A stretch of 64,000 nt of DNA from a virus: IMG/VR virus record IMGVR_UViG_3300047509_000085, positions 5,620-69,619 of that record. One strand, written 5' to 3'. This document shows positions 4,867-52,816 of the stretch, piece by piece (position 1 is the stretch's first letter; every line of letters begins with the position of its first letter). The notes beneath the pieces were generated by a model. The model made no database searches. It saw only the letters and a program-made list of their open reading frames with translations, and was not told the origin of the DNA. Both the position numbers and the translations under genes were made by a program.

Positions 4867-6141
4867 GTGCCGGCTCCCGCGCGCTCGCCACCAAAGTCGC
4901 AGCTTCGAGCCTCGCGGCCATCCGCGCGTCGTCGTCGAGGATTTGCGCGAGCAACCGCAGGCGCGTCGCCATGGCGCGTGCGCGACGGTCGCCATTGAAA
5001 GCTGAGAGCTCGGTGGCGGCGATCTCCCGCAAGTGCGCCGCGGTGTTGGCGATGGCCGCCGCTATCATGACGCGGGCCCGTCGCTATCGATCAGCCACAC
5101 CACGTCGCCGTAGTCCTCGCCGGTATCATTGGCGACCATAGCCATCAGGCGCTCGGTCGAGATGTCCGGCTCGGCGTCCTCAATACGCTCCCACGCCTCG
5201 CGCACGCGGCGCTTGCGGTCGGCCATGTGGACGACATCGCGGCTGCGGCGGCGCGTCATGGCGCGTCCACCGCGCGCAGCGGATCGGGCAGCGGTCCCTG
5301 GCCGTCCGGCTTCAGGATGCCGCGCACGTCGTCTATCGCCTGCATGTTCCCTTTGCGGCGCTTTGCAACGCGCGAGCGGCCATCGCGCAGTTCGGCGAGC
5401 AGTTCCTGGTAGGCCGAGCGCCGCGCCTCCAGTACGAGTATGTCCGCGGCGAGCTTGTCTACGCGCTCCGTCAGCAGTTCGATCATCGGGTCAGTCGCGT
5501 CACTCATCGGTCGCGCCCCCTCTTTACGTTGTATGCCTCGAACAGCGCATCCTCGATCGCATCGGCGATCAAGCGGCGCGACTTCGGGAATATCGGCCGA
5601 GACGGCGCCTGCGGCCCCTCCGCGAACCGCCCGGCGCAACTCGTGCAGAGCGGGATTCGGTCGTAGTACTCGGCCTCGTCGGCCTTGCAGTAGACACACG
5701 ACGGCATCAGTCCCTCCTTGCCGAACCGCGGAACATCGTCGCCAGCAGCCGCAGCGCGGCTGGCGCATCCATCCATGGCGCCGCTTTTTCCAAATCGGCC
5801 GCCATCGCGTCGGCCTGATCGGCGCATAGCGCGAACGCATCGCGCGCAGCTCGTTTGAGCATCGCTAACGCGACCGCCTGCCGGTCGTCGGTTGCTAGAT
5901 CGCCCATCTATGCCGCCCTCCGTTGCCGCGCCTTGCTCGCTGCGACCGCGGCGCGGAATGCCGCAGCTTCCGGGATTAGGTGCCGCACTTTGAATTCCCG
6001 GATGCAGGCCAGGGCGTGACCGCGCCACCAACGACGCTCCGCCCCATGCGCGTCGCGATACTCGGCGATGGCCGCCAGCGCGTCCGCCAGTCGCTTGTCC
6101 CGCAGGATGCGCTGATGGTCGAGAACGTAGGGGCGGGTCAT
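4859..6141 (-). other. run of six small leftward early ORFs (4859-5068, 5065-5259, 5256-5507, 5504-5707, 5707-5907, 5908-6141)
   Basis: abutting or overlapping starts and stops; no function recognisable. Confidence 0.55.
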
Positions 6142-7506: not shown

Positions 7507-7845
7507 TCAATCGTCGGAGTCGGACCCGTCCCGCATCACCAGAAGAAGTCGCAAATAGGCTTCTTGCTGTTGCTCGTTCATTGAGCCGAATAGCTCGTGA
7601 AGCAAAATCTGCTGCTTGTCACGGATCGTCACCTCTCCGGCGGTTGCCGAGGGAGGCAGCAACTCAGTAATCGGCAACTCCAGGGCTTCGCTTAGCTTGA
7701 TCCGGTTCGCGACGGTAATGTTGGTGACGTGGCCATTTTCCCACTGATGAACCGCGCTCCGAGACACCCCGATCAGCCTGCCCAGGGCTTCCAGAGACAG
7801 GCCGCGGAATAGCCTAGCCCGCCTGATTTTAGCGCCTACTTCCAT
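7507..7845 (-). CDS. CI-like XRE/HTH phage repressor
   Basis: IRRARLFRGLSLEALGRLIGVSRSAVHQWENG HTH; divergent from the cro-like gene. Confidence 0.85.
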   Translation of the reverse strand: MEVGAKIRRARLFRGLSLEALGRLIGVSRSAVHQWENGHVTNITVANRIKLSEALELPITELLPPSATAGEVTIRDKQQILLHELFGSMNEQQQEAYLRLLLVMRDGSDSDD

Positions 7846-7868
7846 AGGCTTAATGGTAGCCCGTATCA

Positions 7869-7910
7869 CGTCCAGAGACACTTGACAAGTCGTGTCCAGC
7901 ATTGCTTTAC
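7869..7910. promoter_or_regulatory. OR-like operators and PR promoter
   Basis: GTCCAG-N5-CTTGAC (7870-7886) and GTCCAG-N5-CTTTAC (7894-7910); TTGACA at 7882-7887. Confidence 0.7.
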
Positions 7911-7918
7911 TGTCCTCC

Positions 7919-8143
7919 ATGGACGATCCAGGCATGTCACTCCTCAAGGGCGAAAGAGGGCGTATTCCCCGATTGGCGAAAGCTCTGGGCCTGACGCGCT
8001 CGGCCGTTCATCAGTGGGACCGAGTGCCGGCGGAGAGGGTGGTTGAGGTATCGCGGATCACCGGCATAAAGCGTGCGGACCTTCGGCCAGACCTGTATGC
8101 CGACGAACCAGAGCCGTGCCCCATGTCAGCGGCGGCGGCGTAG
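7919..8143 (+). CDS. Cro/YdaS-like regulator
   Basis: LAKALGLTRSAVHQW...RADLRPDLY signature. Confidence 0.85.
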   Translation: MDDPGMSLLKGERGRIPRLAKALGLTRSAVHQWDRVPAERVVEVSRITGIKRADLRPDLYADEPEPCPMSAAAA

Positions 8144-42974: not shown

Positions 42975-45047
42975 ATGCCGACCAGAAGGATGGTGGTGAC
43001 GCCAGGCGTGAACCTGGAGAAGACGCCGACCTTGAACAGTGGCGGATTGTCCGATGGTAATTTGATCCGCTTTTTTGCGAAGTTGGTCGAAAAGTTAGGA
43101 GGCTGGCAGCGTCTCACCAACCAGCTATTCGTCGGTACCGCGCGCTCACTTTTCGGCTGGGGCGCATTCGACGGGGTGCCTTATCTCGCCATCGGCACCG
43201 AACAACGCCTCGAAATCTTCGCCGGCGGCACGCTGTCCGACATCACACCCGTCATCGCCACCACCAACCCAGCCGTTTCGTTCTCGACCGTGCTCGGGTC
43301 CTCCATCGTCACGATCCAGGATCCCGTGGTCTCGCCTGGCATCGGCGACTGGATCCAGCTTGTTAACCGCGTCTCCGTCGGGGGCGTTGTGCTGCAAGGC
43401 TTCTACAAGGTTGTCGCCATCGTCGACGGCACGCACTACACAGTCGATGCTGGCACCGGAAACCTCGCCAACATCGCGGTCGTCGGCGGTGGCGTCACGG
43501 TGAATTATATCACCACCAACGGCTCCGCGACCGTTACCGTGCAGCTTCCGAACCACGGTTTTGCTGTCGGCGACCTGTTCAAGACGGGGCTTCCCACGAC
43601 CGCCGCCGGCATCCTCATAGACGGTATTTACAGCGTGGTATCCGTTCTTCCGACCGTAGGGCCGCCGGATCAATTCACCATCATCGCCGGGACGGCGGCC
43701 AACGCCAGCGGGATTTTCCCCTCGAACGGCGGCAACGCCCGCATCCAGTACCTGCTGCCGTCGGGCGTCGCCGTGAACACGCCTGGCGGCGGATGGGGTT
43801 CGGGGGACTGGGGCGCGTTCGACTGGGGCGGTGCCAATGACGGAACCAACGGCGGCCCCGGCGTGCCGTCGGTCATCCACCTGCGCAACTGGTCGCTCGA
43901 TCATTGGGGCGAGGACCTGATCGCCTCGCCATGCGACGGCAAAATCTACACATGGTCGCCGCCGACCATAGTGCCGGCCGCGGTGCTGGCCGGAGCGCCC
44001 GTCATCAACGAGTTCGTCTTCGCCCTCGCGCAGGCGCAGATCCTGGTGGCCTGCGGCACCGAGACCGGCGGCGTGAAGTTTCCGACGCTGATCCGCTGGT
44101 GCGACTCGGGCAACCGCACCGCTTGGGTCGCCAGCGCCATCAACCAGGCGGGCAGCTTCCAGTTGCCGTCGGGGTCCAGGATCGTCGCGGGCCTGACCGT
44201 CGGGCTCGGCGCGCTGATCTGGACCGACGCCGATCTGTGGTCGATGGTCTACCAGGGCCTGCCGTTCGTATTCGGGTTCAACCGCATCGCGGTGAACTGC
44301 GAGGCGATCAGCGTCAAGGCGCCGCTGGTGGTCGGCGGCAGCGTCGTGTGGCCGTCCGATCGCGGGTTCTTCCGCTATGACGGCGGCGGCGTGTCGCCGC
44401 TGGATTGCACGGTCTACGATTTTTTCTTTGACAACCTCGACGAAAACCAGACCGAGCAGGTGTTTGGCGCGCTCAACACGCTGTTCAACGAGGCAGCGTG
44501 GGGGTTCCCGGTCAGCACATCATCGCCACTTTATGACCCGGCCATCGGTAGCATGGCGTTCGTGAAGTGGAATTTTTCAGAAAACTCATGGGACAAAATC
44601 TACAGCGCGCAATACCAGCGTTCGGCATGGACGGACCACTCGCCGGTCGGCAATCCTATTGGCGCGGACTTTGCCGGGCTGCTGCAAGAGCACGAACGCG
44701 GCGCGGATGCCGACGGAGACCCGATGGTATGGTTCTGGCGGACGGGCGATTCTGACCTGGGTGAGTCCGGAGATTTTGCTCGCCTCGACCGTATCGCGCC
44801 TGATTTTGTGACGAAGCTGGAAGGCGGGGCAACGACCGTTCAGACGCGGATTACCGTGCTAGGACGCGATTTTGCGAACCAGCCCTACAGTCACTATGGG
44901 CCTTTCACGGTTACATCCGAAAGCCCCATGATCAACTGCAATATTCGGAACCGGCAGATCGCGTTGGAGGTGGGCGGCAGCGATCGTGGCACGTCAGAAA
45001 GATTAGGGGCGTTTAATCTGCGGATAGCATCGGCCGGACGCCGATGA
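42975..45047 (+). CDS. tail nozzle/packaged-DNA stabilisation protein
   Basis: size, beta-propeller character, EKLGGW, WSLDHWGEDLIA, IRWCD. Confidence 0.75.
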   Translation: MPTRRMVVTPGVNLEKTPTLNSGGLSDGNLIRFFAKLVEKLGGWQRLTNQLFVGTARSLFGWGAFDGVPYLAIGTEQRLEIFAGGTLSDITPVIATTNPAVSFSTVLGSSIVTIQDPVVSPGIGDWIQLVNRVSVGGVVLQGFYKVVAIVDGTHYTVDAGTGNLANIAVVGGGVTVNYITTNGSATVTVQLPNHGFAVGDLFKTGLPTTAAGILIDGIYSVVSVLPTVGPPDQFTIIAGTAANASGIFPSNGGNARIQYLLPSGVAVNTPGGGWGSGDWGAFDWGGANDGTNGGPGVPSVIHLRNWSLDHWGEDLIASPCDGKIYTWSPPTIVPAAVLAGAPVINEFVFALAQAQILVACGTETGGVKFPTLIRWCDSGNRTAWVASAINQAGSFQLPSGSRIVAGLTVGLGALIWTDADLWSMVYQGLPFVFGFNRIAVNCEAISVKAPLVVGGSVVWPSDRGFFRYDGGGVSPLDCTVYDFFFDNLDENQTEQVFGALNTLFNEAAWGFPVSTSSPLYDPAIGSMAFVKWNFSENSWDKIYSAQYQRSAWTDHSPVGNPIGADFAGLLQEHERGADADGDPMVWFWRTGDSDLGESGDFARLDRIAPDFVTKLEGGATTVQTRITVLGRDFANQPYSHYGPFTVTSESPMINCNIRNRQIALEVGGSDRGTSERLGAFNLRIASAGRR

Positions 45048-45059
45048 TATACTTTTGAT

Positions 45060-45776
45060 ATGGCAGAGGAAATCTGGCGGCCAGTCCCCGGTTTTGAAAG
45101 CTACTACGAGGTCAGCGATCTTGGCCGCGTGAAGTCATGCGCCCGCTCTGTGCTCCGTGTGCGTCAGGGGGTTGACGGCGAACTGAAGATACCTGAACGC
45201 ATTCTAAAACCACGCAAAAGTGGGAGTGGGTATTTTTCAGTCCACCTTTACAAGGACGGGTTGGGTAAGAATCACGATTTACATAGGCTAGTCCTCTTAG
45301 CGTTTATGGGCCATTCACATGCCGGAGAAGAGGGTTGCCATAACGATAGGGATAAGTCGAATAACCGCCTTAGCAATCTACGATACGACACGCCCAAGAA
45401 CAACCATGCCGATAAGTACAGGCATGGCACCGCGCTCTTTGGAGAGAAGAACCATCTCGCTGGCCTCAACGATGAGGTTGTTATGGCGATTCGCGCATTA
45501 AAGGGTCGCAAGACCATGAAAGAAATTGGTGAAATGTTTGGCGTAAGACCGCTGAATATTGCAAATATTTTGGCGGGGAGAACGTGGTCTCATCTTGGCG
45601 GCTTCGGGCCGCCGCCTAAACGATGGAAGATTTCAGACGAGCAGGCAGAGGCGATCAGGCAACTCACCGGCAAAGAAGTGCGTAGCGTGACGGCCAAGAG
45701 GTATGGCGTCACTAAAAGCTGCATCCAGCACATCCAACATGGTCGTGTCCGAATGCCGCCGGCTCAGGTGCCATGA
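45060..45776 (+). CDS. NUMOD4-HNH homing endonuclease
   Basis: EIWRPVPGFESYYEVSDLGRVKS...LHRLVLLAF...CHNDRDKSNNRLSNL. Confidence 0.9.
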   Translation: MAEEIWRPVPGFESYYEVSDLGRVKSCARSVLRVRQGVDGELKIPERILKPRKSGSGYFSVHLYKDGLGKNHDLHRLVLLAFMGHSHAGEEGCHNDRDKSNNRLSNLRYDTPKNNHADKYRHGTALFGEKNHLAGLNDEVVMAIRALKGRKTMKEIGEMFGVRPLNIANILAGRTWSHLGGFGPPPKRWKISDEQAEAIRQLTGKEVRSVTAKRYGVTKSCIQHIQHGRVRMPPAQVP

Positions 45777-46015
45777 GTGGCACTTTTGGAGGGGCGGCGG
45801 CTGGCGTTGGCGACGTAGGCCGCATCGTCGATGCGTTGCAGCAGATGATCAAGCTGCAAGGGTTGGTCTACCAGTTGCTGCTCACCGGGCCGTCCACGGT
45901 GACGGTGCGGCCGTTGCTGACGGCAGCGGCGAATGATGCGGCAGCGGCTGCGGCGGGTGTCGCCATTGGCGGGCTTTACCAGAACGCGGGTGCAGTTCGT
46001 CAGAGATTGGTGTAG
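45773..46015 (+). CDS. small virion-module protein
   Basis: coupled start; ANDAAAAAAGVAIGGLY. Confidence 0.55.
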   Translation: MSGTFGGAAAGVGDVGRIVDALQQMIKLQGLVYQLLLTGPSTVTVRPLLTAAANDAAAAAAGVAIGGLYQNAGAVRQRLV

Positions 46016-46027
46016 GGTATTGATCTT

Positions 46028-46372
46028 GTGCAATTCATTCCCGCCATAGATGACCTTCTGACCGTCTCGCTGCCCGGTGAAATCCTGCGGATGCCGGTCA
46101 TCCGTGTCGTCGACCGCGATACCGTGTTCTGCGAACTGGATGGCAATCCGCTCAATCCCTCGAAGCAGCACAGTTACCGCAAGGGTGACGTGGTTGCCGT
46201 GCGCCGCAGGAAAGGCGCGCTTGGCGAGACCTGGCAGGCGGTGGACGACCGGGTGCTCTACGCGCGCCAGCCCGAGGAGACCGAGCCGCCACTGCCGCCA
46301 AAGCGCAAGACGCGGGCGAAGGTGAAGGCGAAGCCGACGGTGGTGAAGCGGAAAGCGAAGGGACGACGCTGA
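46028..46372 (+). CDS. hypothetical protein
   Basis: operon packing. Confidence 0.6.
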   Translation: MQFIPAIDDLLTVSLPGEILRMPVIRVVDRDTVFCELDGNPLNPSKQHSYRKGDVVAVRRRKGALGETWQAVDDRVLYARQPEETEPPLPPKRKTRAKVKAKPTVVKRKAKGRR

Positions 46373-47448
46373 TGCCGAGCACGAGTCAGGCACAACATCG
46401 GTTCATGGAAGCCATCGCCCACAACTCGGCGTTCGCCAAGAAGGCCGGAGTTCCGCAGCGCGTCGGCAAGGATTTCGCCGCAGCGGACCTGAAGGCAGGC
46501 ATCACCAAGACGCACAACGGCAAGCCGATCAAGCGGGCGGACGGCGGCAGCGTCGACGATCCGAACGCCATCGGCGGCATTGCTCCCACGCAGGCAACCG
46601 CCTCGCCGCAGGTGCAGGACATGATGCAGCGGTTCGCCGGCATGCCCGCCGAGCAACTGCAAGAGGCGGTGATCCGCATGGGGCCGACCTCGCCGATGGG
46701 TGCGCTCGCATCGCGCGTGCTCGCGCAGAAGCGGATGATGCCGACCAGCCAGCAACAGGGATTCGCCAACCCTGGCCAGCGTGGAATGCCGCGCGCACCG
46801 ACACCCGCCGCGCAACCGAACCTGCAACCAGGCGCCACCGCCGAGCAGCAGACCGGCCAGGGGCTCGCCAAGTCGCTCGGGCAGATCATGGGGAACGACA
46901 CGGAGACGCCAGCCACGCAGCCGCAGGGGTTCGCGCTGGGCGGGATGCCCATGATGTCGATGTCGCAGGCCGATCCGCCATGGTCGCGCGGGGCGTCCCG
47001 GTCGATGGGCGCTCCGATGCCGACGCGCGGGTTCCTGGCAGGGCCGACGCCAGGACGCGCCGATGCTATCCGTGGTGCGCCGGCTGTTGGTTCCTACGTG
47101 CTCCCGGCCGATATTGTTTCGCACTTCGGGTCCGGCAGTAGTCTCGCAGGTGCACACGCGCTATCGGCAGCGTTCTCCAGCGGACCCTATGGTACGTCGA
47201 TCCCGCATGGTGGCGGACGTGGGCCGCCTCGCGCACCGGCTCCGTTCCACATGACGCGAGGCGGAGCGACGGACACCGTGCCGGTTGAACTTTCGGATGG
47301 CGAGTACGTCATCCCGCCGGAGATCGTAAGCCAGATCGGGCACGGCGATGTGTCCCGAGGTCACAAAGTGCTCGATAAGTTCGTGGAACATACGCGCAAG
47401 AAACTTATATCGACCTTGAAGAAATTACCGGGACCAGTTCGCTCATGA
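46372..47448 (+). CDS. probable internal virion protein with GG motifs
   Basis: MPSTSQAQHRFM, RADGGSV, GRADAI...YVLPADIVS, LSDGEYVIPPE. Confidence 0.7.
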   Translation: MPSTSQAQHRFMEAIAHNSAFAKKAGVPQRVGKDFAAADLKAGITKTHNGKPIKRADGGSVDDPNAIGGIAPTQATASPQVQDMMQRFAGMPAEQLQEAVIRMGPTSPMGALASRVLAQKRMMPTSQQQGFANPGQRGMPRAPTPAAQPNLQPGATAEQQTGQGLAKSLGQIMGNDTETPATQPQGFALGGMPMMSMSQADPPWSRGASRSMGAPMPTRGFLAGPTPGRADAIRGAPAVGSYVLPADIVSHFGSGSSLAGAHALSAAFSSGPYGTSIPHGGGRGPPRAPAPFHMTRGGATDTVPVELSDGEYVIPPEIVSQIGHGDVSRGHKVLDKFVEHTRKKLISTLKKLPGPVRS

Positions 47449-47984
47449 TCGAAAACCCACAGGGCATCCGCAAGGCTGGCATCCATGATTTGCTGCCGCT
47501 GATCGGATCGGCCTCCATCATCCTTGGCGAAAGTGCGCTGCAAGCGTTGTCGCCAGAGAAAGTCGCGGCCCTGGTACAGAGATGCGTGGAGTTTGATCGC
47601 GCGCTAGCGGGTATCATTTCCGGACCAACAGGCATCGAAGCATCAATCGGTCTTGTGATTGAATCCTTCGATTATAGCGACGAGCAACATCTGAGCGTGA
47701 AGTGGCTCGGGGTTCATCCAGAATTTCAGCGGAAGAATCATGGTGCCACGCTGATGAGCTTCGCCAAGTGGGCGCAGGAAATGGTCGGCGTTCCGTTGTT
47801 CATGGGCCTCTCTACGCTCGAAGCGCTGCAAGCGAAGCTGCACTTGTTCGTAAGAAGCGCGCCGCAGGTCGGAGCGCTGTTCTCTTTCGGAGGAGCGCCG
47901 CACGGGGCGTTTAACCAACGCGCTCCGGGGCATGATCCGTTCATGGAACACAAGAAGTCGCGTGCCAGACCGCAAGCCGCCTAG
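47445..47984 (+). CDS. GNAT-fold acetyltransferase-like protein
   Basis: WLGVHPEFQRKNHGATLMSFAK (motif A). Confidence 0.7.
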   Translation: MIENPQGIRKAGIHDLLPLIGSASIILGESALQALSPEKVAALVQRCVEFDRALAGIISGPTGIEASIGLVIESFDYSDEQHLSVKWLGVHPEFQRKNHGATLMSFAKWAQEMVGVPLFMGLSTLEALQAKLHLFVRSAPQVGALFSFGGAPHGAFNQRAPGHDPFMEHKKSRARPQAA

Positions 47985-48435
47985 CTTCCCGGCCGGCGTT
48001 CGCTTCTGCCAAGAGGGCGATTGCCCAGCGTTGTTCGACATTTTCATGGAAGCGCATCGGCTTGGCGGCTGGATGAACGTCAACGAGGATATTGTCCGTG
48101 ACGTGATTGCCCGCGCGACTAGGCGAGACACATTCGCCATTGCGGTCATTCCTGGGCCAACGTGCGTTGAAGGTGTTATCGCTTTTCAGCCGGTCAGGCA
48201 ATGGTACGGGAACCAAGATAGCTGGTATTGGAGCGAGCTTTTGCTATTTGTCAGGGTAGAATACCGAAAGTCTCGCCATGCTTGGAAGTTGCTGCAATTT
48301 GCTAAATGGTTCCAGCATGCAGTGAATGCGCCGGTGATGGTGTCTCTGATGCCAAAAGAGGATTTTGACAGAAAGGAACGCTTGCTGGGGCGCTTCGGTA
48401 AGCGCGTCGCCAGTAGCTTCCTGATCAATGTGTAA
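47932..48435 (+). CDS. GNAT-fold acetyltransferase-like protein (paralog of 47445)
   Basis: LFVRVEYRKSRHAWKLLQFAK; start uncertain; lower GC. Confidence 0.7.
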   Translation: MIRSWNTRSRVPDRKPPSFPAGVRFCQEGDCPALFDIFMEAHRLGGWMNVNEDIVRDVIARATRRDTFAIAVIPGPTCVEGVIAFQPVRQWYGNQDSWYWSELLLFVRVEYRKSRHAWKLLQFAKWFQHAVNAPVMVSLMPKEDFDRKERLLGRFGKRVASSFLINV

Positions 48436-48438
48436 AGC

Positions 48439-48655
48439 GGAGACGGCTGAGATAGCCGCCTCCTCCCTGCCTTACCGCACCACGGCTCGCCTCGCCCCGG
48501 CTAACCCAGCCTTGGCTTGCCACGCCGGACCTGACCAAGCCCGCCATGCCGCGCCACGCCTCACCATGCCAGTCCTAGCCCGGCCACGCCTCACATTGCC
48601 ATGCCTCGCCTCGCCCAGCCCGGCCTCACCGTGCCTTACCCCGCCTAGCCCTGCC
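48439..48655 (-). ncRNA. GGY-NN pentamer array with 3' hairpin (putative gapped guide RNA array)
   Basis: 37 pentamers plus one 4-nt unit from 48655 to 48467, 32 starting GGC/GGT; 10-bp hairpin 48439-48463; begins just after the stop of the RAMP-like gene. Confidence 0.85.
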
Positions 48656-48657
48656 TG

Positions 48658-49260
48658 TTACGCCACTTTACGCAGAGTTGGCTTCTTCCCAGCCAACTCC
48701 GCCCAACGAACCAAAGCAAAACGCCCAAACGGCCCACCGCGTTCTGGCCGATAGTCGCCAAGTCCTAACCGCTTGCCAGATTCTTCCAGTAACTGATGCA
48801 CCGTGTCGGACTCAATCATTGATAAATCTATGTCGATGTTAATGTCGGCGCCCCACGAATTTAGCCGTGGACGGTGACGCATGATCCTGCCCTTGGTGCT
48901 TGGAATGACCACTGGCCTTGAATCCACTTCAAAAGTGCGTAACGGGTTCCCGTCATCATCAATAAGACTGATTTCCTCATCCAACACGAGCACCGCTGCT
49001 GGGACAACAAACTTGAGGGACTTCCGACTGCCGCGCTGCTTGTGACTGCCGCCGGCCTCACGCAACATCCGAGCTACTGAACTTCCCGGAATAAACAGCG
49101 TTCCGTCTGTTCGCTGATAGGCAACTTTTGTCGCTTCCTCGCGCGGATCGCCACGTTTGATGTGGATGGCTCGCGTTGTTTCTTCGACCTCTGATGCCTC
49201 CGCCCAGCGGTGCATCAGCATTGCCGACGTGCCGGATATACTAGCTACGAAAATTGCCAT
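48658..49260 (-). CDS. stand-alone RAMP/Cas7-like RNA-binding protein (Vipr-like)
   Basis: N-terminal strand ISGTSAMLMH, LFIPGSSVARMLREA, C-terminal Gly-rich loop GLGDYRPERGGPFGRF; RBS upstream of ATG 49260; 200 aa. Confidence 0.8.
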   Translation of the reverse strand: MAIFVASISGTSAMLMHRWAEASEVEETTRAIHIKRGDPREEATKVAYQRTDGTLFIPGSSVARMLREAGGSHKQRGSRKSLKFVVPAAVLVLDEEISLIDDDGNPLRTFEVDSRPVVIPSTKGRIMRHRPRLNSWGADINIDIDLSMIESDTVHQLLEESGKRLGLGDYRPERGGPFGRFALVRWAELAGKKPTLRKVA

Positions 49261-49486
49261 GCCTCTTGTCCTTGTGCTTGGATTGATGCCACTGGACACA
49301 GACATGGATGCTGTATGATGTTCGATAAGCCATCGCGAGGTCTGATCTCCGGTGGTCAGGGTGGCCATCACCTCCGCACGAGGTGGTGGTCTCCCGCATC
49401 CTAGCATGACAATCGGCCACGTCTAGCCTATAGTGGCCTCATTCGATCATTCTCGCGCGTCGCGAGCCTCACGTGGAAGGCTCTAG

Positions 49487-52400
49487 ATGCGTGGCATCCT
49501 GCACTCGGAAGATTTCGGTTGGGCAAGCGCACCGCGCGGCAAGGGCGGTGGCGGCACAAACACCTCCACCACGGTACAAAACACGACCCCTCCGCCGGCC
49601 TTTACGCAAGCGTTACAGGGCGCGCTAACCCAAGGCCAAAACGCGGCATCCGCGCCGTTCACACAATACCCCGGCCAGCTTCAGGCGCCGTTCGCGCCGC
49701 AGCAGTTGCAAGGCTTCGGCATGGTGGGCAGCACGCCCGGCATCGCCGCGCCGTATGTCAATGCGGCAGCGCAGCACTACGACGCCGCGACCAATCCCTT
49801 GTGGCAGAACGTCCAGCAGTTCTCGCCGCAGGCCATCAGCCAGTACTCAAACCCCTACACGCAGAACGTCATCAACGCGACGCAGGCGCATTTCAACGAC
49901 CAGAACGCGCAGGCCGCGAACCGTCTTCAGGGCGACGCTGCTTCACGTGGAGCATTGGGCGGCGACCGGGCTGGCGTGGCGCAGGCGGTGCTGCAAGGCC
50001 AGGAGGATTTCGCGCAGGCCCCGGTGATTGCCGGCTTGCAGAACCAGGGCTATGCGCAGGCGTTGCAGGAGTTCAACCAGCAGCAGGGCACGCAGCTTGG
50101 TGCCGATCAGGCGAATGCGTGGCTCAACAGCCAGGCGGCAGCCGGTTTTGGCGGTCTCGGCACCGAGGCGCTGAATACGACGCTTGGTTCCGCCAATGCG
50201 CTGATGGGCGCGGGCGCGCAGCAGCAGGCGCAGGCGCAGCAGGGGCTCAACATCCCGTTCGCGCAGTTCCAGGCGCAGCAGGCGTATCCGTTCCAGACGG
50301 CGGGATGGTTGTCGGGGCTGACGAGCCAGCTTGCCAACGCGGCGGGCGGCACGGCGTCGACCACATCGCCTGGACCATCGCCGTTCTCGCAGGGGGTTGG
50401 TGCGCTGACGGCTGGCGCGGGCGCCATTGGCGCGCTGAACAAGGCAGGGGTGTTCAACAGCACGCCGTCGACCGGCTTCGGCTCGCCCGGCATCGGCGAC
50501 ATCAACTCCACCATCCTGCCGAGCGAGCAGGCGGCAGCAGATGCAGCGGGAGGATTTGGAGCGGGCGCGTCCAACATAGGAGACTTCATACCAGGCGGTG
50601 CCCGTGGTGGCGCCATCCCGCATCGCGCACCTGGCGGCATGGTGCCGGGGAACGACCCGATGGGCATGGGCAACCCGGGCGGTGCTCCGCCTGGCATCGC
50701 GCCCGGGCTCGGGGCCGGCGTCCCGATGGGCTTCAACGGCGGCGTGCCAATGGGCGGCGACACCCTCGCCGGCATGGGTGTGCCGGATGTGTCGGTCTCC
50801 GTCGTGCCGGACGCGCCGCCAGCCGGCCTGCCGTCGGGCGCCAAGACATCCACCAGCGTTACATCGGGCGGTGGTGGCGGCAAGGACAGCATCTTCGGCA
50901 CGCTGCTCAAGACGGCCGGCAACATTGCGGCCGGCGTGTTCGGCGGTCCCGCCGGTGGTCTCGCGGCGAGTGCGCTCGGCTCGCAGGTGCATTTCGGCCA
51001 TGGCGGCGGCGTTCCCAACCGCGCCCCTGGCGGTTCCATCGCCGTGCCGCAGATGCCCTCTGTGGCTGGCGGTGCCGGCCCGGTCAGCGTGAGCAGCTCA
51101 CCGTCCTCGCTGACCGGGTTCGCGCTCCCCCAGATGACCGTGAACGCGGGCGGTAGCGGATCCGGCTCGCCCGACGAGGTGAATGCGTTCCTCGACAGTG
51201 TGGCGAAGGGGCAGTTCCACATTCCGGCCAAGCCCGCGCCGACTGCCGCAGCGCCACCGCCGGTCGCTGCACCAGTGACGCCGCCGCCCCCGCTGATCGA
51301 TCCGTTCTTCGCCGAGCAGGCGGGGCAGTCGAACACCGGCGGGGCGCAGAGCGAGGGCGGCGGCGATCAGGGCGGCGCGCAGGCGCGTGGCGGCCCGGTG
51401 CACGGCTTTGCCATGGGCGGGATGCCGCTGCGCGGGTTCGCGGATGCCGGCGCGGTGACGGATGACCTGACGCCAGATGACACCTACGATACGGAGCCTG
51501 GCGGGCCACCACGGCAGACCATCGCAAATCCGCACGGGCTGCCGACCGTCAGCGATCCATGGGATACGTCGGGGGGCAAAGCTCCGTCCAGCATGGGGAA
51601 TCCGCCACCAGCCAGCGACTCTGCCAAGGAGCGCTTCTTGCAGGGCGTTGTCACGCGCGAGAGCGGCAACCGGAATGTCCCCAATCAGCAGGGGCCAGGC
51701 GGCACGCCGCTTAGCTCTTCGTCTGGATACTTCCAGATAACCGACCCGACGTGGCGCGAAAACGCCAGGCTAGCCGGTGTGGACACGGACAAATACCCGA
51801 CCGCCATGTCTGCGCCGAGGGAGGTGCAGCACCAGGTCGCCGGCCTGCTCTACGACCGGGAAGGCGAGCGACCGTGGGCGGCTTCCGCTCCGGGCGCAAC
51901 CGGCACCGCCGGCCTCGGCAATCCCCCCGACCTTCCTCCGGCACCGGATCGTCAGGTGTCCGACTGGACGCCAGCCGAGCGCAAATACGGCCCCGACGAC
52001 ATCCACATGCCAGCCAAGCCGAACGGGTGGCTCTCGCTGATGGAAGCCGGCTTCGGCATGATGGGCGGCACCAGCCCGTTCGCCGCGGTGAACATCGGCC
52101 GCGGCGCCGAACAGGGCGTGCGCAGCTACCAGAACTACGACCTCGCGGCGCAGAAGCTCGCCACCAACGTCGAGGAAGCCCGGGCGCGCATCAGCGAGAA
52201 CCAGGCGTACCACGACGACACGATCAACACGCGCCGGTTCGGCATCGACACACGCAGCGCCGACCGGCAGCAGCAATTCGCCAACCAGATGTCCATCGCG
52301 CAGTTGCGAATCCAGGCGCAGCAGGCCGCCGCCGCAGCGCGCGGCGCTGGCCACATGACTGAGGCGGAGGCGGAACAGACGCGGGTGCAGCAACTGATGC

Positions 52401-52816
52401 TGCCGACCGAACAAGGCGGCATGGGCATGACGATGCCCGACGCCATCGAGGCAGCGAAGGGATTTGCCGGTCGAGCGGCGCGGGCCGGGCGCACAGCCGA
52501 CCAGGGCGATCGACGCTTGGATCAAGGCGATGCGCGGTTGCAGCAGGGTTGGCAGAGGCTTCAGCAGTCAGCCGACACCGCCGAAGCAAACCAGCAGATC
52601 AGGCGTGATGCGTTGACGCAGGCGCGCACCGAGCACGAAAAGACACTGCTGAACACGGCGACGAACGCGGAGGTTTCGGCGGCGGCGCGGATGTCGTTCA
52701 GCGCCGACGGGTTCCCGGCCGCGCTGGAGAAGGTGATTGCCGGACGCAAGACGGCAGCGCCAGCATCGGCTGCACCTGCGACGGCGGCACCGCCTGATCC
52801 TCTCGGCATTCGCTGA
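49487..52816 (+). CDS. DNA-ejection/internal virion protein with a lytic transglycosylase (Rpf-like) domain
   Basis: Gln-rich N-terminus (YSNPYTQNVI); RESG...SGYFQITDPTW...Q...PW near 51630-51880. Confidence 0.8.
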   Translation: MRGILHSEDFGWASAPRGKGGGGTNTSTTVQNTTPPPAFTQALQGALTQGQNAASAPFTQYPGQLQAPFAPQQLQGFGMVGSTPGIAAPYVNAAAQHYDAATNPLWQNVQQFSPQAISQYSNPYTQNVINATQAHFNDQNAQAANRLQGDAASRGALGGDRAGVAQAVLQGQEDFAQAPVIAGLQNQGYAQALQEFNQQQGTQLGADQANAWLNSQAAAGFGGLGTEALNTTLGSANALMGAGAQQQAQAQQGLNIPFAQFQAQQAYPFQTAGWLSGLTSQLANAAGGTASTTSPGPSPFSQGVGALTAGAGAIGALNKAGVFNSTPSTGFGSPGIGDINSTILPSEQAAADAAGGFGAGASNIGDFIPGGARGGAIPHRAPGGMVPGNDPMGMGNPGGAPPGIAPGLGAGVPMGFNGGVPMGGDTLAGMGVPDVSVSVVPDAPPAGLPSGAKTSTSVTSGGGGGKDSIFGTLLKTAGNIAAGVFGGPAGGLAASALGSQVHFGHGGGVPNRAPGGSIAVPQMPSVAGGAGPVSVSSSPSSLTGFALPQMTVNAGGSGSGSPDEVNAFLDSVAKGQFHIPAKPAPTAAAPPPVAAPVTPPPPLIDPFFAEQAGQSNTGGAQSEGGGDQGGAQARGGPVHGFAMGGMPLRGFADAGAVTDDLTPDDTYDTEPGGPPRQTIANPHGLPTVSDPWDTSGGKAPSSMGNPPPASDSAKERFLQGVVTRESGNRNVPNQQGPGGTPLSSSSGYFQITDPTWRENARLAGVDTDKYPTAMSAPREVQHQVAGLLYDREGERPWAASAPGATGTAGLGNPPDLPPAPDRQVSDWTPAERKYGPDDIHMPAKPNGWLSLMEAGFGMMGGTSPFAAVNIGRGAEQGVRSYQNYDLAAQKLATNVEEARARISENQAYHDDTINTRRFGIDTRSADRQQQFANQMSIAQLRIQAQQAAAAARGAGHMTEAEAEQTRVQQLMLPTEQGGMGMTMPDAIEAAKGFAGRAARAGRTADQGDRRLDQGDARLQQGWQRLQQSADTAEANQQIRRDALTQARTEHEKTLLNTATNAEVSAAARMSFSADGFPAALEKVIAGRKTAAPASAAPATAAPPDPLGIR

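Follow-up and report, generated by a model that had tools for sequence, protein, structure and literature searches.

The window considered in the current analysis is a stretch of 64,000 nucleotides (positions 5,620 to 69,619 of the IMG/VR virus record IMGVR_UViG_3300047509_000085), and all coordinates given here refer to it. The region of interest belongs to the virion block of a soil phage contig of 69.6 kb, which carries terminase, portal, Erf and methyltransferase genes. Within this block a small gene and an array of pentamer repeats, assigned below to the VIPR (Viral Interference Programmable Repeat) systems, are situated alone on the minus strand, between two small paralogous genes and the DNA-ejection genes, all of which are encoded on the plus strand. 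The features of the locus are the following.

47445..47984, plus strand: upstream paralogue of the target gene (BLASTP 27% identity, E-value 2e-12), with a weak GNAT-like signal
48031..48435, plus strand: target gene of 134 amino acids with a TTG start, in a frame open from 47932; member of an unnamed family, convergent with vipr
48166..48216, plus strand: near-target of 17 codons in the resident gene, with its core at 48184-48209; best one-skip match on the contig
48439..48463, minus strand: GC-rich hairpin of 10 bp directly after the last unit, a candidate vrRNA 3' tail or terminator
48467..48655, minus strand: vrRNA array, parsed by coordinate into 38 GGY-NN pentamers among which 15 different NN words occur
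48487..48570, minus strand: units 18-34, the guide segment of the array, whose words decode to the motif of the target family
48541..48545, minus strand: one-base slip at units 23/24, read as a 4-base unit or as two 5-base units with a common G
48658..49260, minus strand: vipr gene of 200 amino acids, in a frame open to 49407; its homologues begin at the Met at 49260

A weak promoter-like site is located inside vipr (48842-48815). The virion block also contains a gene similar to HNH homing endonucleases (45060-45776; NUMOD4, E-value 2.4e-16, and HNH_3) three genes upstream of the VIPR locus.

VIPR is a CRISPR-like DNA silencer that was first described in 2026 (bioRxiv 10.64898/2026.04.26.720920, 10.64898/2026.04.26.720927 and 10.64898/2026.10.15.759431). 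According to the available text of these preprints, Vipr, a stand-alone RAMP of about 20 kDa with an RRM core, a G-loop and a thumb, forms a polymer along a vrRNA built from GGY and NN elements. In this complex the GGY is hidden and the NN pairs with DNA, of which every third base is passed over, in most cases the wobble base of a codon. The natural targets are rival phages and satellites, whose transcription is silenced on binding.

The product of the vipr gene matches the PHROG family phrog_4652, of unknown function, with an E-value of 8.4e-15 over residues 51-231 of the 249-residue frame. No Pfam family could be assigned to it, and no Pfam domain was found in any of the 120 homologues listed. 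Homologues number 1435 among 1913 candidates and all the named ones are referred to as hypothetical. A profile built from 36 homologues matches one solved structure, PDB 36pp_D ('SUSP1 Vipr protein', E-value 2.4e-8), in the thumb and G-loop region. The predicted fold (pLDDT 84.4) is similar to the Csm3/Cas7 backbone subunits of type III and type VII CRISPR systems (Foldseek E-value 5e-7, probability 1.00), the library used (up to April 2026) being without a Vipr entry and the comparison thus one with Csm3/Cas7 and not with Vipr. The residues of SUSP1 Vipr that hold the GGY are given in the available text of bioRxiv 10.64898/2026.04.26.720927 as H17, R138, D177, W178 and R179, and they align to H17, R130, D169, Y170 and R171 of the present protein. 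Among the 36 homologues R130 and R171 are invariant, while H17 and D169 are at least 90% conserved, the alignment of H17 lying in a weak N-terminal stretch. Y170 keeps the aromatic nature of W178 of SUSP1 and is not among the conserved columns listed.

The association of gene and array is conserved. Of 85 other homologue loci, 55 have a GGC array of period 5 on the strand of the gene and 2 have one on the opposite strand; the detector recognises GGC only, and the 29 loci without an array may use other scaffolds. By the listed coordinates the array abuts the gene match in all 55 same-strand loci, and the sequences of L001, LESphi2, Trine and UmaThurman have been inspected. Phages of Gordonia and Pseudomonas are among the loci with this pairing. 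On the basis of the profile match to SUSP1 Vipr and the predicted Cas7/Csm3-like fold, the locus is classified as a VIPR system. It comprises a Vipr-like RAMP with the GGY-contact residues, a GGY-NN array on the same strand and a computed target with a one-base skip. A vap accessory gene is not found on the strand of vipr, and there is no other minus-strand gene in 47445-52816. The absence of vap does not exclude membership, since the available text of bioRxiv 10.64898/2026.04.26.720920 states that VIPR loci 'typically' have two genes.

Some observations on other loci were made in the course of these comparisons. The GGY-NN arrays of an IMG/VR phage (L001, 2800-2850) and of Gordonia phage Trine (L004, 3560-3615 and 3690-3735) are broken up by elements resembling a tRNA acceptor/T-arm minihelix with a GGTTCGACTCC-type loop. 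Judged from their sequence, these tRNA-like elements might be processing signals between vrRNAs; the VIPR preprint text, as far as available, mentions hammerhead-interspersed arrays and carries no mention of 'tRNA'. In Gordonia phage UmaThurman (L005, 3583-3906) the interval annotated as 'hypothetical protein' gp40 falls entirely within a GGY-NN array that follows the Vipr homologue gp39, and gp40 is probably not a gene. A blastn comparison of 44001-52000 with 50,697 phage records gave array-to-array matches only, in 24 records (23 Mycobacterium phages and one Stenotrophomonas phage) with identities of 69-73%. VIPR-type arrays thus appear to be present in these 24 records, some of them under 'hypothetical protein' annotations.

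The array begins 3 bases past the stop codon of vipr, on the same strand. Its scaffold is well preserved, with an exact GGY in 33 of the 38 units and two of the three bases in the remaining 5. Tandem Repeats Finder reports periods of 10, 15, 20 and 35 for the tract. The run of 38 units with one slip (23 + 15) and a stable hairpin compares with published vrRNAs of 9-16 repeats that end in a structured 3' tail conserved among them. The slip at units 23/24 is the probable boundary of a 'staggered' vrRNA array, such arrays with a 1-nt overlap being described in the legend of fig. S18 of bioRxiv 10.64898/2026.04.26.720920, a source available in part. As unit 23 is counted here as a 4-base unit, the unit numbers used are one higher than those of the earlier note on this DNA from unit 23 onward.

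Downstream of the last unit, the minus-strand RNA of 48395-48480 folds with -36.2 kcal/mol (z -3.2); a terminator scan made no call at the hairpin 48439-48463. In Rfam no family corresponds to the array, none was found in the window, and in five loci there were 3 matches below the gathering score. A search of sequencing runs gave no RNA dataset listed as holding the locus. Several readings of the array that preceded the PDB match, namely a pentapeptide-coding repeat, a Rho-utilisation tract, two-layer G-quadruplexes and an RNA binding a TRAP-like ring, have been dropped.

Some other stretches of the array show features of their own. Guides made from units 1-12 and from units 14-23 (48546-48655) reach best identities on their own contig of only 0.625 and 0.65, which are below those of all 200 unit-order shuffles of each. 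This low self-identity may be a trace of selection against self-matches. The last six units, 33-38, situated next to the 3' hairpin, agree in all 12 of their read bases with the plus strand of the window at 7542-7558 when one base is skipped. The site is at the 3' end of the phage's own gene for a HTH_3/cI-like repressor (7507-7947, minus strand; Pfam HTH_3, E-value 5.8e-12). The match is without wobble alignment, about 0.25 such scores are expected per scan of the window, and it may be due to chance; repressor genes are known as VIPR targets from the available text of the published work.

The gene that converges on the array had been referred to as a GNAT gene in the earlier note. This label is weak: neither of its frames (47932-48435 and 48031-48435) has a Pfam family, and the GNAT matches occur in the paralogue 47445-47984 only, where Acetyltransf_7 (21.4 bits) and Acetyltransf_1 (18.4 bits) are both below the cut-off. 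No relatives of this upstream paralogue were found in IMG/VR.

The earlier note had claimed that the NN words of the array spell this neighbouring gene with a one-base skip aligned to codons, and every count given in it is reproduced. Units 24-32 agree with 48184-48209 in 16 of 18 read bases, which are codon positions 1 and 2 of nine successive codons. Over a longer stretch the agreement is 23/28 for units 19-32 against 48169-48209 and 26/34 for units 18-34. At every site that had been quoted the skip falls on codon position 3, as was claimed. The 17 units on one side of the matched run and the 4 on the other read nothing in the target gene or its family.

The significance of this match was assessed by the shuffle test that had been proposed, on both strands and with skips of 0-3, and only the one-base skip stands out. 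With this skip the match has the highest local score in the window, both strands included, at 15.5, and the runner-up has 12.0; the other skips (0, 2 and 3) do not exceed 11.5, self-matches of the array excepted. A single unit-order shuffle among 250 equals the match window-wide. Within 2.5 kb on either side it is reached by 0 of 3000 shuffles when the array is treated as one run; dividing the array at the 4-base unit raises this to 8 of 3000. The best score of the array is 17.0 on its own contig against 13.0 in 850 kb of decoy phage DNA. When the arrays of 48 other VIPR loci were compared with their own flanks, the maximum was 12.0 and the shuffle ranks were unremarkable; near-self matches are therefore no general property of VIPR arrays. 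By full-length ungapped scoring, as employed by the VIPR authors, units 24-38 agree with the resident gene in 19 of 30 bases, a value equalled on the contig by 85 of 200 shuffles.

Two further matches had been put forward from the sequence, and for both the counts hold and the significance does not. Units 2-8 against 48205-48225 give 11/14, as do 129 of 500 shuffles or better, and 100 of 100 residue-level shuffles are as good. Units 14-22 against 48094-48120 give 12/18, and 20 sites of the contig have at least 12/18. Both are at chance level and have been rejected as real targets.

The target gene has relatives that permit the guide to be compared with more than the resident copy. A full HMMER pass over 1.84 billion representatives identified 144 homologues of the target protein, the best with 57% identity. 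A word-based protein search returned only the target protein itself, with none among shorter proteins. In IMG/VR no true relative of the protein was found; there is one match of 44 residues (E-value 8e-5), and none with the alignment A3. The family consensus at the target site is R-I-E-A-V-I-G-L-Q-P-x-K-x-W-Y-G-D-D. For a comparison at the level of residues rather than bases, each NN word of the guide was converted to the residues that it can encode, and units 18-34 were scored against the homologues. The homologue P0122 is compatible with 12 of the 17 units and P0126, P0127 and P0135 with 11 each, as against 9 for the resident protein. In the controls, comprising 113 slid registers and 2000 unit shuffles, no homologue exceeded 7, and none of the 2000 shuffles reached 12. 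This residue-level fit to the family is independent evidence against a chance match.

The guide and the resident gene disagree at eight units. At units 18, 23, 33 and 34 the guide has the commonest residue of the family (Ile, Gly, Asp and Asp), unit 23 being read as GG when it is taken as a 5-base unit. At unit 28, where the resident protein has Arg and the majority of the closest homologues Lys, the guide stands for Lys or Asn. Unit 27 fits the resident protein and not P0122. None of the homologues compared fits perfectly, the best remaining at 12/17, and the four best ones are singletons from short contigs. Judged by these comparisons, the guide corresponds to a variant of the gene that is nearer to the family consensus than the resident copy is. 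A diverged copy of the gene from another soil run (X5) has 21 differences over 48183-48329 (147 bases); 8 of the 8 differences listed are at wobble positions, the listing covering the copy without 30 bases at the ends of the pieces, among them the target site.

The earlier note had further suggested that such a gapped guide is blind to synonymous change, and this property corresponds to the '1 nt skip rule' in the available text of bioRxiv 10.64898/2026.04.26.720920 and 10.64898/2026.04.26.720927. Precedents for wobble-aligned targeting, and for phage vrRNAs whose match to self is below their match to a rival, are found in the available part of bioRxiv 10.64898/2026.10.15.759431. The suggestion that the guide is tuned to a diverged allele is borne out at the residue level by the four homologues with 11-12 of 17 units against 9 of 17 for the resident; no better-matching DNA has been found. 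The database search that had been recommended for a perfect-match target yielded no perfect or near-perfect DNA in viral, metagenome or genome contigs. An inclusive 16-base pattern gave 5 matches in viral contigs, none of them homologous and all with extensions at chance. The guide-perfect 18-base pattern gave 15 matches in metagenome contigs and 11 in genome contigs, all extending at chance (1-7 of 17 bases upstream and 0-6 of 12 downstream). The pattern of the last nine units had no exact match in viral contigs. The absence of a target is weak evidence, since the collections hold almost no relatives of this phage.

Based on these observations the following mode of action is proposed. The minus-strand gene 48658-49260 would encode Vipr, a small Cas7-like RAMP, and by analogy with the published systems the array would be transcribed with or after vipr. 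Vipr would polymerise along the 38-unit transcript such that the GGY is hidden, the NN is presented and every third DNA base is skipped. Units 18-34 would serve as a guide directed at a conserved segment in the small protein family that includes 48031-48435. As in the published systems, the complex would bind the template strand of a matching gene and block its transcription. We consider it rather probable that this is a VIPR locus with a guide aimed at the relatives' version of the neighbouring gene. Silencing of that gene in related, competing phages or elements, the presumed carriers of the true target, is suggested as the most likely role, since the guide fits the versions of relatives better than the resident one. 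The resident copy would be spared, its match being 76% over units 18-34 and 63% over units 24-38, both below the 80% that the VIPR authors use to call a target (bioRxiv 10.64898/2026.04.26.720920, available in part).

The proximity of the site to the array raises the question whether the resident gene itself is the target. The complex could bind its own site at 48166-48216 and either silence the gene or block convergent transcription into the array and vipr, the imperfect match giving a partial or timed repression. The site is about 260 bases from the array and in a convergent gene. Working natural targets of a six-unit guide, which is functional in SUSP1, have a match of 89.2% on average (bioRxiv 10.64898/2026.10.15.759431), and either DNA strand can be targeted (bioRxiv 10.64898/2026.04.26.720920), as given in the available texts. 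The 16/18 (89%) over nine units is equal to this mean, and on this analysis the complex might bind the resident gene after all. If the site were regulatory and under selection, the best match to the guide would be expected in the resident copy, whereas four relatives fit better; the 48 other loci have no excess of array matches to their own flanks; and the available text of bioRxiv 10.64898/2026.04.26.720920 reports no self-targets of 80% or more. Formation of the R-loop in SUSP1 starts at the 3' end of the vrRNA (bioRxiv 10.64898/2026.04.26.720927, available in part), and the six units nearest to the 3' hairpin match the resident gene in only 3 of 12 read bases. Self-regulation is for these reasons regarded as unlikely. 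A coincidental likeness of a real VIPR array to its neighbour, out of many windows compared, is less likely by far. Units 24-38 are indeed not significant when scored at full length, and the two other matches that had been proposed are at chance level. Against coincidence, 0 of 3000 local shuffles reach the match, which is the best on the whole contig and above 850 kb of decoys, and the fit to the family is not approached by the 2000 shuffles or the 113 slid registers. We therefore regard this explanation as very improbable.

The guide segment could also be a relic or a trace of its own birth: it may have arisen from an earlier form of the gene, or have been directed at one in the past, both having since drifted with no present target remaining. 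No perfect target is present in any of the collections searched, the flanking 17 and 4 units read nothing in the gene or the family, and the matched run crosses the one-base slip. The exact GGY in 33 of 38 units and an intact vipr are difficult to reconcile with decay, the departures of the guide from the resident gene go towards the family consensus and are not random, and the missing target carries little weight for the reason given above. Such an origin is considered improbable, to about the same degree as self-regulation. The course of the matched run is relevant here: its 17 units continue unbroken across the slip, so that the units before and after it read neighbouring codons of a single target. 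If two vrRNAs were cut at units 23/24, neither would carry the whole match, and the arrangement may amount to a tiling of the target by two guides. The run may alternatively reflect templated acquisition of a guide from a contiguous stretch of target, or a single Vipr filament that reads through the slip, which we put forward as a doubtful proposal, slightly less probable still than a relic. We know of no description of templated guide acquisition by VIPR arrays. The available text of the three 2026 preprints does not address how the arrays are written. Silencing of the relatives' version of the gene thus remains the preferred reading.

Among the known systems the type II VIPR of the Escherichia phage SUSP1, comprising Vipr, vrRNAs and vap1, is the natural reference. 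Both are phage-borne and have a small RAMP with the same GGY-contact residues and, next to its gene and on the same strand, a GGY-NN guide of which two bases are read and the wobble is skipped. The sequence likeness is limited to the C-terminal 60 residues (E-value 2.4e-8). SUSP1 has 9-16 units and a pseudoknot tail, whereas the present array is one run of 38 units that ends in a plain hairpin, and the present locus has no same-strand vap and stands by itself within the virion gene block, on the strand opposite to it. The staggered vrRNA arrays of fig. S18 share the one-base overlap of consecutive guides seen at units 23/24. They differ from the present array, in which there is a single slip in 38 units and adjacent codons of one target are read across it, an arrangement not described in the available text of the discovery preprint.

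The solo and anti-vipr vrRNAs of SUSP1-like phages (bioRxiv 10.64898/2026.10.15.759431, available in part) are similar in that the guide resembles a gene carried by the phage, is aligned to the wobble position and fits others better. The target in the present case is a small accessory gene beside the array and not vipr or a vrRNA, and of the versions that fit better only the proteins, encoded on short contigs, are known. The Cas7/Csm3 filament that forms the backbone of Class 1 CRISPR systems has in common the RAMP fold and a guide filament with bases flipped out at regular intervals. Class 1 CRISPR has a period of 6 with 5 bases read, while the array described here has a period of 5 with 2 read; a repeat-spacer array is absent, and no Cas-family match was obtained among the proteins scanned.

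The VIPR code is already published, and the locus is a further member of these systems and no discovery of a mechanism; the two-read, wobble-skipped code had been derived in the earlier note from the raw sequence. What the locus contributes is a clear natural case from beyond the SUSP1 and Pseudomonas fulva groups studied so far, in a soil phage for which hardly any relatives have been sequenced. The matched units across the stagger provide a small lead on the organisation or the birth of arrays, and if either templated acquisition or read-through of the slip is true, it would bear on how VIPR arrays are written. The resident site and its consensus-like counterpart form a concrete pair for the measurement of self/non-self discrimination and of mismatch tolerance. 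A guide situated beside a gene of the family that it reads, and fitting the relatives of this gene better, is the pattern expected if VIPR hits kin and spares self.
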